A DNA stretch of 64,000 nucleotides, taken from the NCBI GenBank assembly GCA_963664405.1, contig OY761158.1:1344001-1408000 (forward strand), written 5' to 3'. The notes below the pieces were generated by a model. It was not told where the DNA came from. It saw nothing but the letters and a program-made list of their open reading frames with translations, and searched no databases. Below are positions 2,166-7,572 of this stretch, in pieces (position 1 is the stretch's first letter; the number at the start of each line of letters is the position of its first letter). The translations under genes were made by a program, and so were the position numbers. Source of the DNA: Thermoanaerobaculia bacterium. GTDB taxonomy: Bacteria; Acidobacteriota; Thermoanaerobaculia; Multivoradales; Multivoraceae.

Positions 2166-2807
2166 TCAAGACCCGGATCCGGTGGCGGCCGCCGGCAGGA
2201 ACTGGGTGACCAGATGGCGCCTGCGCTCTTGGAGGGGACGCGTCGATCCCCCCTCGATTTTCATTCGCAGTAGCGCACCCTCCCACACGTCGAGAAGAAA
2301 ATCGGCAAGCTCGGCCGCGGGCAGGTCGCTGCGGATCGAGCCCCCGGTCTGACCGCGCCCGAAGAGCTCGGCAAGTGGCCCTCGCCACGATTCGTAACCG
2401 GCTCGCAGAGCGTCTCGAAGGGGAGGGCTGGTGGTGGCGACTTCTCCGCCGAGGTTGGCGAGAAGACAGCCGCGCCGGGCCGCCAACCCCTCCTGCAGAA
2501 GAATCAGCTCTTCGAGAGCTCCGTCCAGCGCTTCGAGAGCGCTCGCCCCGTCCACTGTGCGGAATCTGTCAGCGAGCTCACCGTGGATCGCCGCCGAATA
2601 GCTCTCGATGCTCTGAATCGCGAGATCTTCCTTGCTCTTGAAGTGGTTATAGAAAGAGCCCTTCGGCATCTCCGCGGCATCAACGATGTGCTGGACGCCG
2701 GAAGCGTGGTAGCCCTTCTCGAAGAACGCCGCCAGGCCCTCGCGCAGGAGCCTCTGACGGGTACTGACGCCGGCCTTTGAGCCCACACTCTCACTCCTCA
2801 CACTCAT
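2166..2807 (-). CDS. TetR/AcrR family regulator (NemR/AcuR-like)
   Basis: HTH GYHASGVQHIVDAAEMPKGSFYNHFKSKE and GCLLANLGGE; ATG at 2807 overlaps the upstream stop (ATGA). Confidence 0.92.
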   Translation of the reverse strand: MSVRSESVGSKAGVSTRQRLLREGLAAFFEKGYHASGVQHIVDAAEMPKGSFYNHFKSKEDLAIQSIESYSAAIHGELADRFRTVDGASALEALDGALEELILLQEGLAARRGCLLANLGGEVATTSPPLRDALRAGYESWRGPLAELFGRGQTGGSIRSDLPAAELADFLLDVWEGALLRMKIEGGSTRPLQERRRHLVTQFLPAAATGSGS

Positions 2808-3907
2808 ACAAGCACCGCTCCCGCCGGGTCGAAGCGTTGGATACCGATGACATCCGCGGTCTCCATCCTCAGCTCGCTGTTGACCGGATCGAGCGGAATA
2901 CCGGTGGCGTCCGCGACCCGCACATTGCACCAGAAGATCGCGACGATGGCGGCGGCATCACCTAAGGCCTCTGGCCCCATCTGACCGGATATCTCGAGCC
3001 GCACCCGGTCGAGATCCTCGACTGAATCGCCCATTGCGGCATCGGCGAGTGCCAGCAGCAAGTCGCCGTGGCGCACTCCTCCTTCGCCTTCGGCTCGACC
3101 CGCCACCTTCTCGAGGTCGACCTCTTCTCCGGCGTCGAGGCTGCTCACCCGGAGCAGCGCACCATGGGCCGTGGTTCAGTAAAAGCAATCGTGGAGATAG
3201 GAGACCCGAGCCGCCAGGAACTCGAGCTGCATGCGATCGAGAGCCCGGCCGGCGTTGTCGCCCGGGCGCCGCATCGCTTCGAGAGGAAGGTAGTGGCTGA
3301 TCTCCATCCGCACCAGGTTTCTCATCTCGTCAGGCACCAAGCTGAGTGCCTGGCGCACGTAAGGAGTGATCGGATTGCCGTCATAAACGGTGTCGAGAGC
3401 GAGCTCCGGAGGAACCAAGGGGACCCAGGCGACGTCCTTGCGAGCCTCTTCGGGGCTGGTGCGCGTAGGCTCCCCTGATTCTGGAGCCGGGAGCTCTGGT
3501 ACAGGCAGGCCGAGAGTGCGATAGAAGACGTCGACACAAAGGCTGGTCACGAGCACTCCGACGAGCTCGATGTAGGGGCCGTCCTCGAGACCTTCGTCGC
3601 GAAGCCCGTCGAGCCATTGCTGAGTGAGTCGCCCAGGGTCGGTGACGATGCGATGAATGGCGTCGACGTAGGGAGCCGGCAACAAGCCCGATTCGAGGTG
3701 ACGGCCCGGGCCTCCGAAAGGAGAGAGAGCCTGCTTGCGCTCCTGGCAGAGCGAGCAGGAGCGGGCCTTTCGCGCCTCGCCCACGATCGCCACCCTGGCC
3801 GCCGCCGACCACCAGCTTCCAGCTCGAGAGAGCCGCTCCCAGGCAATTTCTTGCGTCTCTGTCAACTCCGGGCGGACGGGGACCGGGAGGGAAGAGTTAT
3901 CGAGCAT
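2804..3907 (-). CDS. AhpD/carboxymuconolactone-decarboxylase-like probable selenoprotein (in-frame TGA at 3178-3176, CFYU)
   Basis: ORFs 3176..3973 and 2804..3148 are in the same frame, separated only by TGA: ...LAARVSYLHDCFY*TTAHGALLRVSS.... Hairpin downstream of the TGA; ATG 3907 with GGAAGGA RBS. Confidence 0.8.
3140..3175 (-). promoter_or_regulatory. Putative bacterial SECIS element
   Basis: mRNA after UGA: ACCACGGCCCAUGGUGC-GCUGCUC-CGGGU-GAGCAGC; perfect 7-bp stem with a G-containing loop starting 24 nt after UGA. Confidence 0.65.
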
Positions 3908-3928
3908 AGATCCTTCCAATTCGGCAAT

Positions 3929-3943
3929 ATGACCGGTCGTCTC
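3929..3943. promoter_or_regulatory. Candidate TetR operator
   Basis: Quasi-palindrome ATGACCGGTCGTCTC directly downstream of the -10 box; resembles TAGAC..GTCTA operators of NemR-like TetRs. Confidence 0.55.
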
Positions 3944-3973
3944 ATGGTACGCTCCGAGGCACGCTAGCGTCAA
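3944..3973 (-). promoter_or_regulatory. sigma70-type promoter of the selenoprotein-TetR operon
   Basis: Minus strand TTGACG-N18-TACCAT, 36 nt upstream of ATG 3907. Confidence 0.6.
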
Positions 3974-4022
3974 GCAAGGTGCGGCCAGGCCCGTCCGGTG
4001 AACTGAGACAGAGGGAGTGACA

Positions 4023-4955
4023 GTGACCGACTACCAACACATCCGCTACGAGGTCGCCGGCACGACGGCCCTGCTCGTCCTCATGCTCGTCGCCGGCCCC
4101 GAACCAGCGGGAGCACAGCGAAACTCTGTGGCGTCTCACCTCCTGGTCGCCGCAGACTTGCCGTATGTAGAGGCCGGCGACCCCAAACTGCAGAGTCTCG
4201 ACATCTACGCGCCACCCGACTCCGAGAGCCTGCCGGTCCTCGTCTACGTTCACGGCGGTGCGCTCTACGAGGGAGACAAGACACGGGTCGGCGAGAAGCC
4301 GGCCTTCTTCTGCAACCGTGGCTGGGTGCTCGTTTCCGTCAACTATCGACTCTCCCCCGCCGTGCGCCACCCGGACCACCTCACCGACACTGCCGCCGCA
4401 ATCGCGTGGATAGCGCGAAACATCGCGGCTTACGGCGGCGACCCCGATCGCATCGCTCTCGTCGGCCACTCCGCGGGGGCATTCCTAGGCGCTCTCCTCG
4501 CCGTCGATCATCGACGTCACCAAGCGCATGGGCTCGGTCTCGACACTCTCAAGGCGGTGGTGCTCCTCGACGGCGTCGAGTACTCGCTGGACGAACGCTT
4601 TCGAGAGCTCTCGCCGGGCCTGTCGCCCGAGGTGATCGCCGAGATCTACGGCAAGTTCGGCTCCGAGCCCGAGAGTTGGCGTGACGCGACCGCGATGCGC
4701 CACGTCGCGCCGGACAAGGGCATCCCGCCAATTCTCCTCGTCGCCGCGGGTGTCCAGTTCCAGCACTGGGTACCGGGACGCGAGCCCAAGATCTTCCTTG
4801 CGGCGCTAAAGGAAGCGGGGGTCGAGGCGGATTATTACCTCGCACCCCAGAAGAACCACGGCCAGGTGAACAGCGATCTGACCAGTGGCGACGCCCTGAG
4901 CCAGAGAGTCCTTTCTTTTCTCGAAGCTCATGTCCGGGCTGCGCCCAGTCCTTGA
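4023..4955 (+). CDS. Alpha/beta hydrolase (HSL-like esterase), possibly with chimeric N-terminus
   Basis: LDIYAP, VYVHGGA, SVNYRL, GHSAG nucleophile elbow, C-terminal His (KNHG). Confidence 0.9.
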   Translation: MTDYQHIRYEVAGTTALLVLMLVAGPEPAGAQRNSVASHLLVAADLPYVEAGDPKLQSLDIYAPPDSESLPVLVYVHGGALYEGDKTRVGEKPAFFCNRGWVLVSVNYRLSPAVRHPDHLTDTAAAIAWIARNIAAYGGDPDRIALVGHSAGAFLGALLAVDHRRHQAHGLGLDTLKAVVLLDGVEYSLDERFRELSPGLSPEVIAEIYGKFGSEPESWRDATAMRHVAPDKGIPPILLVAAGVQFQHWVPGREPKIFLAALKEAGVEADYYLAPQKNHGQVNSDLTSGDALSQRVLSFLEAHVRAAPSP

Positions 4956-4991
4956 CTCAGCGGCGAAGAGAGGAGCCTCGAAAACGCGCCC

Positions 4992-5603
4992 TCAAGACGA
5001 TTCTTCGATGCGCCCCAGCGCTGCCGCCACCAGCTCGAGCCGGTCGTTGCCGAAGTACATGTCGTCGCCGATGAACATGGTGGGCGAGCCGAACCCCCCG
5101 CGCGCCATCAACTCCTCGGTATTCGCCCGCAGCCGATCCTTGATGTCCTGGGACCGTCGGCGCTCGGCAAGCCAAAGCGGGTCGAGCCCTACTTCCACTG
5201 CGAGCTCGTCGAGAACACTCGGCTGGGAGATGTCTTGATCCTTGCCCCAGTAGGCGGCGAAGCAGGCGGTCGCGAGCTCGTGCAGCTTACCCCTCTCGTT
5301 CGCCGCGATGATGCCGCGCAAGGCTTCGACGGAGCGCACCGGAAAGACCGTCGGATCGATCATCTCGATCCCCGCCAGGCGCGCCCAGTCCTTCACATCC
5401 TTGTCGTAGTAGCGTTTCTTGATCGGATTAGGATTGGCGCGGGACTCGTACACCTCCTGATTAATGGCATTGAAGACCCCACCGACCAAGATGGGAAAGG
5501 AGACGATCTCGGTGTCGAGCCGGGCCGCCAGGGGATGAAGACGGGTGTAGCAGAGATAGGTCCAGGGACTCGAGACGTCGAAATACAGGTCGATCTTCTT
5601 CAT
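4992..5603 (-). CDS. 2-hydroxychromene-2-carboxylate isomerase / kappa-GST (DsbA-like)
   Basis: YFDVSSPWTYL, GGFGSPT, FGNDRL motifs. Confidence 0.9.
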   Translation of the reverse strand: MKKIDLYFDVSSPWTYLCYTRLHPLAARLDTEIVSFPILVGGVFNAINQEVYESRANPNPIKKRYYDKDVKDWARLAGIEMIDPTVFPVRSVEALRGIIAANERGKLHELATACFAAYWGKDQDISQPSVLDELAVEVGLDPLWLAERRRSQDIKDRLRANTEELMARGGFGSPTMFIGDDMYFGNDRLELVAAALGRIEESS

Positions 5604-5673: not shown

Positions 5674-7572
5674 ATGCTGTCAAGAATCGTCGCCTCGCCC
5701 GCCTCCGTCGAGCCCGTGCTGATCGTCCTCCTGGCACTGGCCCTGCTCGGGCCGATCTGCGGATGCGCCACTGGGGACTCCGCCGACAACGAGCCGTCGG
5801 CCAAGGTCGACGAGGAGCCTGTCATCGAGCGCGACCCACTGCGTCAAGCCTTCTTCGGCGATCTCCACGTCCACACTGCCCACTCTCTCGACGCCTACAT
5901 CAACGGGGTCAGGCTGGGGCCCCGCGACGCCTATGGGTTCGCTCGAGGTGCGGCGGTGTCTCTGCCAGGGGGCACGGAACAACAGTTGGCGATGCCGCTC
6001 GACTTCGCCGCCGTCACCGATCATGCTGAGTTCTTCGCCGAGGGTGTGCTGTGCACCGATCCGTCGAGCCAAGCCTTCGAGGCCGACTTCTGCGTAGCAC
6101 TACGCGGAGGCGATGGCAGCATCATCCCCTCCGTCTTCGAGCGGATGAGTCGGCAACCGCCCGACCGCGACCAGCAGACCTGCCCGGAAGCAGAGCCCTG
6201 CCGAGAGCTGGCGAAGGGACCTTGGCAGGATATCCAGGCGGCAGCGGACGAGCTCAACGACCCCGGCCGATTCACCACCTTCGTGGCCTACGAGTACTCA
6301 CCGCTGCTGCGCGACTTCGGCACCCTTCACCGCAACATCATCTTCCGCGGAGCGACGGTTCCGGACGAGGCCCTGTCGGCGCTCGATCTGCCGACCCAGG
6401 CGGATCTATGGCGTTGGCTCGAGACCGCGTGCACTGGAGACTGCGAGGTGCAGGCAATACCTCACAACATGAACATGTCCTGGGGGCTGCTGTTCTCGCG
6501 CACCAACGATGACGGCACGCCCTACAGCGCCGAAGACCTCGAGCGCCGGGCGCGCTTCGAGCGGGTTGCGGAGGTGACCCAGCTCAAGGGGTCGTCCGAG
6601 TGCGCGGTCGGATTGGGAACGAACGACGAGGAATGCGCCTTCGAGCAGATGTTCCCGCTCTGCGAAGAGGGGCAGGAGACAAAGTGTGCACAGTCGGGGT
6701 CCTACTTGCGTGACGCCCTCCTCGACGGGCTCGCGCTCGAGGAAGAGGGCGGTACCAACCCCTTCAAGCTCGGCATGATCGGCTCGACCGATGCCCACAA
6801 CGGCACCGCCGGCGCTGTCGAGGAAGACCGCTTCATAGGAGCCGAAATGCCTCCGGCCGAGCTTTTCGCTGCCGCCAGCCCGATCTACGGTTCGCGAACC
6901 AACATCAACCCCGGAGGTCTGGCGGGCGTGTGGGCCGAGTCGAACACTCGCGAGGATCTGTTTGACGCTTTGCGGCGAAGAGAGAGCTTCGCCACCAGCG
7001 GCACTCGCATCCGAGCTCGATTCTTCGCCGGCTGGGACTATCCGAGCGACCTCGACAAACGCAAGAACGCGCTCCGGGTCGCGTACGAGCAAGGCGTACC
7101 GATGGGAGGCGATCTCGGCGCGCCGAACGGCCAGACCTCTCCCCGATTCTGGGTGTGGGCGCTACGCGGCGCTGACGGGGCTCCGCTGGACCGCCTGCAA
7201 GTGGTCAAGGGGTGGACCGCCACAGACGGCTCACCCCATCACCGCGTGTGGGACGTGGCGTGCGCGGGCGGCCGCTTTCCCGATCCCGCTACAGGCCGTT
7301 GCGCCGCTGTAGAGGCGTCGGTCGATCTCGACGACTGTTCCGTGCGCGACGACTCGGGCGCCGGCGAGCTCAGCGTCGTCTTCGCCGACCCCGACTTCGA
7401 CCCCAAAAGACCCGCGTTCTACTACGTGCGGGTGCTCGAAGTCCCCTCTTGCCGCTGGACAACGCATCTGGCCAATCGCGCCGGCCTCGAGCCGCCCTCC
7501 AATCGCCCCACAACGATCCAGGAGCGCGCCTGGTCGTCGCCGATCTGGTACACCCCTAGGCTCCACAAATGA
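5674..7572 (+). CDS. DUF3604 domain protein (PHP-like metallohydrolase, probable lipoprotein)
   Basis: FFGDLHVHT, LDFAAVTDHAE, LHRNIIF, IPHN, GSTDAH, IQERAWSSPIWY; hydrophobic N-terminus followed by Cys. Confidence 0.9.
   Translation: MLSRIVASPASVEPVLIVLLALALLGPICGCATGDSADNEPSAKVDEEPVIERDPLRQAFFGDLHVHTAHSLDAYINGVRLGPRDAYGFARGAAVSLPGGTEQQLAMPLDFAAVTDHAEFFAEGVLCTDPSSQAFEADFCVALRGGDGSIIPSVFERMSRQPPDRDQQTCPEAEPCRELAKGPWQDIQAAADELNDPGRFTTFVAYEYSPLLRDFGTLHRNIIFRGATVPDEALSALDLPTQADLWRWLETACTGDCEVQAIPHNMNMSWGLLFSRTNDDGTPYSAEDLERRARFERVAEVTQLKGSSECAVGLGTNDEECAFEQMFPLCEEGQETKCAQSGSYLRDALLDGLALEEEGGTNPFKLGMIGSTDAHNGTAGAVEEDRFIGAEMPPAELFAAASPIYGSRTNINPGGLAGVWAESNTREDLFDALRRRESFATSGTRIRARFFAGWDYPSDLDKRKNALRVAYEQGVPMGGDLGAPNGQTSPRFWVWALRGADGAPLDRLQVVKGWTATDGSPHHRVWDVACAGGRFPDPATGRCAAVEASVDLDDCSVRDDSGAGELSVVFADPDFDPKRPAFYYVRVLEVPSCRWTTHLANRAGLEPPSNRPTTIQERAWSSPIWYTPRLHK

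Follow-up and report, generated by a model that had tools for sequence, protein, structure and literature searches.

Selenoproteins with a CFYUT motif have been in print since 2005 and are curated by NCBI as NF041238 (AhpD_rel_CFYUT, 'alkylhydroperoxidase-related (seleno)protein'; equivalog model, cut-off 175 bits). A review of 2026 identifies the family with the "hypothetical protein 1" listed in the Sargasso Sea selenoproteome of 2005, for which the excerpted text of the 2005 report gives four sequences, a conserved CXXU motif and a stem-loop resembling a selenocysteine insertion sequence (SECIS) element (PMC1088965). AhpD-like CxxU selenoproteins rank among the most abundant selenoproteins of marine metagenomes, as stated in the excerpt of PMC2398784. 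The string "CFYUT" is absent from the papers covered by the literature search. Among Cys-containing relatives, YP_296737.1 (2prr) has a catalytic dyad and proton relay of Glu74, Cys86, Tyr88, Cys89 and His93, and human Sestrin2 (5cuf) has twofold pseudo-symmetry and contains two AhpD-like lobes, of which one is an alkylhydroperoxide reductase (both from excerpts of PMC4674687). The gene described here lies in a stretch of 64,000 nucleotides (the window; C1:1344001-1408000) of a Thermoanaerobaculia genome of 6.78 Mb in one contig. It occupies positions 3907 to 2804 of the window, on the minus strand, and is a genuine, intact member of NF041238. The gene is not a discovery, since the family is curated by NCBI and has been in print since 2005; it adds nothing to knowledge of selenocysteine (Sec) decoding or of the family's existence. 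The additions are modest: a tandem-AhpD, Sestrin-like architecture with a conserved CxxC in the N-terminal lobe, and a codon constraint acting on the hairpin at the RNA level.

Single frame of 367 codons plus a final TGA (2806-2804), translated with TGA as U. The sole internal stop is TGA at 3178-3176 (codon 244), in the context GAT TGC TTT TAC TGA ACC ACG GCC CAT, read as D-C-F-Y-U-T-T-A-H; the motif is C241-F-Y-U244. The joined protein matches NF041238 end to end (414.1 bits, E 5.3e-124; residues 11-360 on profile positions 1-356 of 357), and the score taken from the DNA is 405.4 bits with one TGA inside. The family's CFYUT motif, with U coded by an in-frame TGA, is present. With high confidence, the whole of 3907..2804 is read as one gene for a 367-residue AhpD-related CFYUT selenoprotein; its C-terminal lobe probably works as a thiol oxidoreductase of the AhpD-like type. 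The start is ATG at 3907-3905, preceded at a gap of 3 nt by the ribosome-binding site GGAAGGA (3917-3911), both read directly from the sequence (element 3905..3917, minus strand). This start fits the profile match, which begins at residue 11. A promoter-like site (TTGACG, 18-nt spacer, TACCAT) lies at 3973..3944 on the same strand; it is a consensus match only, found once against 0.1 expected in shuffles. The earliest possible start of the downstream open reading frame (ORF) is GTG at 3148, which falls within the loop of the hairpin described below, and no Shine-Dalgarno-like motif is seen ahead of it.

Much of this had been put forward in a first-pass annotation made from the letters of the window: two ORFs in one frame joined by a single TGA, a 7-bp hairpin beginning 17 nt past the UGA, a downstream part lacking a clear ribosome-binding site, and an AhpD-like selenoprotein of about 367 residues with Sec at codon 244, which standard gene callers would split in two. 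All of its details are correct; the minus strand is a point that it did not state. The predicted splitting is evident in public annotation. Among 5.8 billion predicted proteins, 23 relatives were found; each has 226-256 residues and covers 60-66% of the query, and none is functionally named. By their length and coverage, these relatives are cut at the TGA: all 23 are N-terminal pieces. The family is thus represented almost only by truncated fragments, and protein databases, like the analyses that draw on them, lack its entire active-site lobe. The gene is to be annotated as one selenoprotein of 367 residues.

The TGA is retained across relatives. DNA was checked for 96 gene copies: 16 came from a sample of the organism's own phylum, and a species scan supplied the other 80, spread over 79 of its 80 best loci. 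The species scan was a profile search with one genome per species (185,579 species); 522 relatives were confirmed and the best 80 loci kept. A scan of genome contigs with the single protein gave 177 pattern matches, none confirmed; the profile scan then gave the 522. In all 96 copies a TGA stands in the same column and homology runs on downstream, which is what the first-pass annotation had proposed to look for. The best 80 loci span Myxococcota, Binatia, Acidobacteria, Alpha- and Gammaproteobacteria, Spirochaetales, Dehalococcoidia, Gemmatimonadales, Microthrix, Entotheonella and others; 79 of them have the TGA within C[FV]Y-TGA-T, one of these carrying two genes. Cys replaces Sec (CFYCT) in the homologue of Marinomonas sp. 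MED121 (L073; 34% identity, collinear over its full length), one of the best 80 of 522; one of the two scan patterns required Cys codons, and the share of Cys forms is not an unbiased estimate. In the phylum sample (401 genomes, two unpublished ones, G152 and G024, counted in the denominator only) NF041238 exceeds its cut-off in 12 genomes, with exactly one in-frame TGA in each of the 12. Residues C241, Y243, U244, H248, E229 and L252 are invariant in an alignment of 72 sequences, R253 is invariant or nearly so, and conservation past the TGA equals that before it.

The genome of the organism (G000) contains five full-length NF041238 genes with exactly one TGA each. All five read CFY-TGA-(T/A)xxH, with homology going on past the TGA. 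The four other paralogues (G000:C1:3214910-3215965(+), 1991733-1992782(-), 4952369-4953421(+) and 2545243-2546301(-); L022-L025, L139-L142) share 40-56% identity with the window copy. Five copies in one genome are a marked expansion, because only 12 of the 401 phylum genomes have any copy over the cut-off. Compared with the family at large, the window gene is alike in its full-length match, CFYUT motif, TGA column and downstream hairpin, as in the 95 other gene copies, and differs in nothing essential; its local traits are the four more diverged paralogues and an overlapping TetR gene.

The search for Sec genes, also proposed in the first-pass annotation, was positive for all four: selA (423.1 bits), selB (339.8 bits) and selD (362.1 bits), each above cut-off, and tRNA-Sec (72.4 bits on RF01852, likewise above its threshold; ARAGORN call tRNA-SeC(tca), anticodon UCA). 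The selD gene, at G000:C1:388007-388930 (+) (L010), holds one in-frame TGA and reads TCG-TGA-AAK, i.e. it encodes a selenoprotein itself. Its hairpin GAGCCC-GGUC-GGGCUC, with the loop GGUC, lies 14 nt past its UGA and is comparable to the CFYUT hairpin. A genome-wide reassignment of TGA was considered and rejected: TGA ends six of the seven neighbouring genes having full Pfam coverage.

A hairpin, GCUGCUC-CGGGU-GAGCAGC (stem of 7 bp, loop of 5 nt), is located at 3158..3140 on the minus strand, 17 nt past the UGA, and is the sole element of the centroid fold. It was compared over 54 nt from the UGA in the 96 gene copies (95 distinct sequences, ungapped alignment), where it spans nt +21..+39. 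Helix columns 21-27 with 33-39 are paired in 92.6% of 665 cells; when the 3' partner is slid by 1-3 columns as a control, 24-52% are paired. Compensatory changes are found at three pairs (21 cells), e.g. the loop-closing C-G becomes U-A in three sequences. Neither the observed pairing nor the covariation was reached by any of 500 shuffles. The RNAalifold consensus consists of the inner 5 bp of the stem. The loop consensus is C-G-(U/G)-G-N, with G29 invariant. In the Marinomonas Cys homologue no equivalent hairpin forms, four of the seven stem positions being pairable and three of these as G-U.

Because the hairpin region also encodes a conserved peptide, LLRASS, synonymous codons were compared in 73 genes, the rest of the same genes serving as background. 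Leu252 is coded by CTC in 71 of 73 (background 35%) and by CTT in two, both of these being among the three genes whose loop-closing pair carries the compensatory change. For Arg253 the codons are CGT in 51/73, CGG in 21/73 and CGC in 0/73 (background CGT 10%, CGC 49%). Ser255 is AGC in 71/73 (background 32%). Bias at these three residues points to selection on the RNA and not on the protein. The hairpin is probably a SECIS element kept by RNA-level selection, as expected of SECIS; conserved pairing, compensatory changes and constrained synonymous codons uphold the SECIS claim of the first-pass annotation. Comparative evidence, together with the known bacterial Sec pathway, argues that Sec is inserted at UGA244.

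The family profile matches the solved AhpD-like 'peroxidase-related' proteins 6k40 (AhpD of D. radiodurans), 3c1l, 2pfx, 2oyo and 2prr (E 7.8e-16 to 4.7e-10) with its C-terminal half only (positions ~173-342). Residues E229, C241, Y243, U244 and H248 align one by one with Glu/Cys/Tyr/Cys/His of 2prr, 3c1l, 2pfx and 6k40. The constellation Glu-x11-Cys-x-Tyr-Cys-x3-His is present with Sec in place of the second Cys; U244 aligns with Cys89 of 2prr, which puts Sec where the CxxC dyad has its second Cys. The active-site helix-turn-helix is coded at 3164..3223 on the minus strand (E229 at 3223-3221, C241 at 3187-3185, Y243, U244 at 3176..3178, H248 at 3166-3164).

The AlphaFold2 model (72 sequences) is all-helical, with a predicted local distance difference test score (pLDDT) of 93.3 and a predicted template modelling score of 0.92. 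It was searched against 48,161 PDB representatives. The best whole-chain match is human Sestrin2 (5cuf; Z 16.5, root mean square deviation (rmsd) 3.5, 242 aligned residues, model residues 1..339), followed by the debrominase Bmp8 (6ohi; Z 13.0, rmsd 2.8, 174 aligned), the peroxidase-related protein 2pfx (Z 12.3, rmsd 3.6, 180 aligned), the CMD family protein 3lvy (Z 11.9, rmsd 3.0, 174 aligned), the putative antioxidant defence protein 2gmy (Z 10.7, rmsd 2.6, 146 aligned) and M. tuberculosis AhpD (1gu9; Z 7.9, rmsd 2.9, 138 aligned). Arrangement alone can bring helical models to Z ~13, a value clearly exceeded by no match except Sestrin2. Foldseek against the PDB gave nothing at E <= 0.001 (best 2prr, 7.2e-3).

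The N-terminal lobe (residues 1-151; 3455..3907, minus strand) is a diverged AhpD/CMD-like helical domain. Modelled alone (151 residues), it has a pLDDT of 91.4; AhpD/CMD folds fill ranks 1-8 of its structural matches (Z 8.1 to 4.9), and the earliest unrelated row has Z 4.2. In an hhalign comparison of the N half with the C half (E 2.3e-4), C51-S-L-C54 (3746..3757, minus strand) falls on C241-F-Y-U244 and so corresponds, within the duplicated lobe, to the CxxU motif. Both C51 and C54 are kept in at least 90% of family sequences; they are deleted in eight members from one genus (g2). Judged by the model, the protein is best described as a tandem AhpD fold in which the C-lobe bears the full Sec active site.

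Three described systems are close enough for comparison. The short AhpD-like CxxU selenoproteins ('AhpD-like 1', COG2128/TIGR01926) and the solved Cys relatives have a homologous C-lobe with the same catalytic constellation, and the former also have Sec at the second Cys, as in the CxxU of the excerpted 2005 and 2008 reports (PMC1088965, PMC2398784). They are, however, single-domain proteins of ~190 residues that form homo-oligomers, whereas the window protein has 367 residues and an N-lobe fused in cis; its TIGR01926 score is 29.9 bits against a cut-off of 81.8. Sestrin2 likewise carries two AhpD-like lobes per chain, with a complete catalytic site in only one of them, but its active lobe is N-terminal with a single Cys, while that of the window protein is C-terminal with Cys and Sec, and the N-lobe has a CxxC. 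Membership of the Sestrin family (Pfam PA26) failed: at E up to 1 Pfam lists CMD only, and identity in the structural alignment is 8%. As far as the model goes, the likeness to Sestrin2 appears architectural only, and common descent of the fusion does not follow from it. M. tuberculosis AhpD (1gu9/1knc), the fold's founding alkylhydroperoxidase, has the same fold but is very distant and Cys-only. The active-site helix gives a weak match to it (E 0.26, profile positions 227-263 on chain residues 112-148). In the excerpt of PMC4674687 the location of the motif in the chain differs between AhpD and YP_296737.1. No AhpC or lipoamide-system genes were found among the neighbours of the window gene.

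The following sequence of events is proposed. When a ribosome reaches UGA244, SelB with Sec-tRNA(Sec) would bind the mRNA hairpin 17-35 nt downstream, and by this binding selenocysteine would be inserted in place of termination. If selenium or SelB were short, translation would stop at UGA244 and leave a fragment of 243 residues without the active site. Sec244, standing for the second Cys of Cys-x-Tyr-Cys, would cycle with Cys241 via a selenenylsulfide, and Glu229, Tyr243 and His248 would act as the proton relay. The N-lobe would be an anciently duplicated, diverged copy of the AhpD fold that carries a CxxC of its own, giving a Sestrin2-like molecule of two lobes. Homology and predicted structure suggest both the selenenylsulfide chemistry and a peroxide-type substrate; the protein most likely reduces hydroperoxides or a partner protein in its oxidised form. 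The label 'peroxidase-like' in the first-pass annotation would follow from family membership.

Several observations weigh against this account of the gene. Folded alone, the 59-nt stretch with the hairpin has z 0.15, and 116 of 200 dinucleotide shuffles fold at least as well; a single hairpin in DNA of 63% G+C is not beyond chance, and its significance therefore rests on comparison with relatives. In that comparison the conserved peptide LLRASS is a partial confounder, and the alignment contains many mutually related sequences. The loop here is CGGGU, with CGG at a codon where just 21 of 73 genes have it and the majority have CGU. With E up to 10, Rfam has no match in the 201 nt surrounding the UGA, and across the whole window none reaches a gathering score; this says little, because bacterial SECIS elements are short. 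The protein misses the gathering score of Pfam CMD (PF02627; 14.6 bits against 23, E 0.034, residues 219-259 only). For homology of the two lobes the HHalign probability is just 44%, and the Z values of the N-lobe are modest (<=8.1). No conserved partner gene exists among 96 flanking ORFs at 50 foreign loci. The literature search found no published assay of any NF041238 member, and the structural neighbours include the debrominase Bmp8; 'peroxidase' is thus only one option.

The strongest alternative concerns the chemistry alone and is compatible with Sec decoding. The protein would be a selenoprotein that does not reduce peroxides and acts instead as a thiol- or selenol-dependent reductase of small organic compounds (cf. 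reductive dehalogenation by Bmp8), with the five paralogues specialised by substrate. Bmp8 is the second-best structural match, the paralogues share just 40-56% identity, the neighbouring hydrolases, dehydrogenases and TetR regulator are typical of xenobiotic-response loci, and a DUF3604 gene lies within 3.5 kb of three of the five paralogues. By sequence, however, the protein is nearest to the 'peroxidase-related' AhpD-like group (6k40, 3c1l, 2pfx, 2prr), the Glu/Tyr/His relay of a peroxidase-type site is complete and invariant, and the gene neighbourhood varies within the family. The alternative is considered rather unlikely, though it deserves to be taken seriously, and a peroxide-type substrate is preferred.

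Very little probability is given to the TGA being a true stop, which would leave two genes or a decaying pseudogene, with a 243-residue N-terminal piece and a 123-residue C-terminal piece that is separately translated or untranslated. Public gene calls do end at the TGA (23/23 relatives of 226-256 residues), and neighbouring genes normally end in TGA. Against this, the TGA occupies the same column in 96 copies from many phyla with strong in-frame conservation beyond it, is kept by all five paralogues of the genome and is replaced by a Cys codon in one homologue; the downstream piece lacks a start codon that has a ribosome-binding site, and a split would run through the middle of the catalytic CxxC helix, inside what is predicted as one domain. 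Read-through of the UGA as another residue (a near-cognate tRNA giving Cys or Trp, or some other recoding signal), with the hairpin as a generic stimulator, is likewise highly improbable: the hairpin matches no curated SECIS model, but the genome has a complete Sec pathway, and the position is that of a redox Cys, where exchange of Sec and Cys typifies known selenoproteins (excerpt of PMC1088965).

The selenoprotein gene is followed on the minus strand by a gene for a TetR-family regulator (2166..2807; TetR_N 1.2e-12, TetR_C_13 5.5e-17), whose ATG (2807-2805) overlaps the final TGA of the selenoprotein gene (2806-2804) as ATGA. From this overlap, the pair is probably transcribed together and translated from a single mRNA. 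No inverted repeat of at least 8 nt (palindromic operator) was found upstream of the operon in 3890-4030. Other neighbours are a divergent alpha/beta hydrolase, DsbA-like, DUF3604, ferritin-like, zinc-type dehydrogenase and aldehyde dehydrogenase genes. Contexts of the paralogues in the genome differ from each other. Flanks at foreign loci were scanned at 50 of the 80 best loci (48 upstream and 48 downstream ORFs), the other 30 being without a clean gene model or flank. TetR is found in 0 of these 96 ORFs, and synteny is clade-specific only (PEBP 7, SLT_2 6, Steroid_dh 5 of 96).

DUF3604 (PF12228) is hugely expanded, with ~50 full-length copies in the genome and 0 in 14 control genomes; the window copy is at 5674-7569 (+). 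A DUF3604 gene lies within 3.5 kb of three and within 7 kb of four of the five CFYUT paralogues (P ~0.0012 and 0.00035, respectively, under random placement). Outside the lineage, tblastn found the link at one of 91 foreign loci, the closest orthologue alone (L059, 69% identity).

A broader proposal is speculative and judged improbable as a whole: that in the CFYUT family bacteria possess a selenium-dependent equivalent of Sestrin's architecture (a fused AhpD pseudo-dimer), that the degenerate CxxC (C51/C54) of the N-lobe forms an internal relay re-reducing the Cys241-Sec244 selenenylsulfide, and that the five paralogues together with DUF3604 (~50 copies) constitute selenium-dependent detoxification modules. 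The two-lobed architecture, the N-lobe CxxC and the DUF3604 link are described in no paper covered by the literature search.

Further selenium-related genes occur in the genome. Two short AhpD-like frames of ~190 residues each, at G000:C1:5776732-5777121 (-) (L027) and G000:C1:2771046-2771624 (-) (L028), read C-H-Y-TGA-(T/I)xxH, with conserved sequence running on past the TGA; they are candidates for further single-domain CxxU selenoproteins. A second SelD-like match, at G000:C1:565727-566650 (-) (L011; 242.9 bits), has no stop and lies inside an open frame of 749 residues, which may encode a fusion protein. Counting at least five CFYUT selenoproteins, a pair of shorter AhpD-like CxxU candidates and the SelD with its own Sec, the organism stands out as a heavy selenium user.

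Two variations were observed within the family. A metagenome-assembled genome of Candidatus Binatia (L067) has tandem CFYUT genes on the same strand (2992-4191 and 4264-5385), both with TGA and hairpin, and the second is highly diverged (28% identity to the window protein). An extra C-terminal tail of ~30 residues past the conserved 'SAANTP' motif is present in L071, L079, L093, L114, L117, L119, L124 and L127, among others. The tail, which the window protein lacks, is rich in Arg, Leu, Pro and Phe (e.g. ...LLGRALRPF...R..) and may be an amphipathic or membrane-associating segment.

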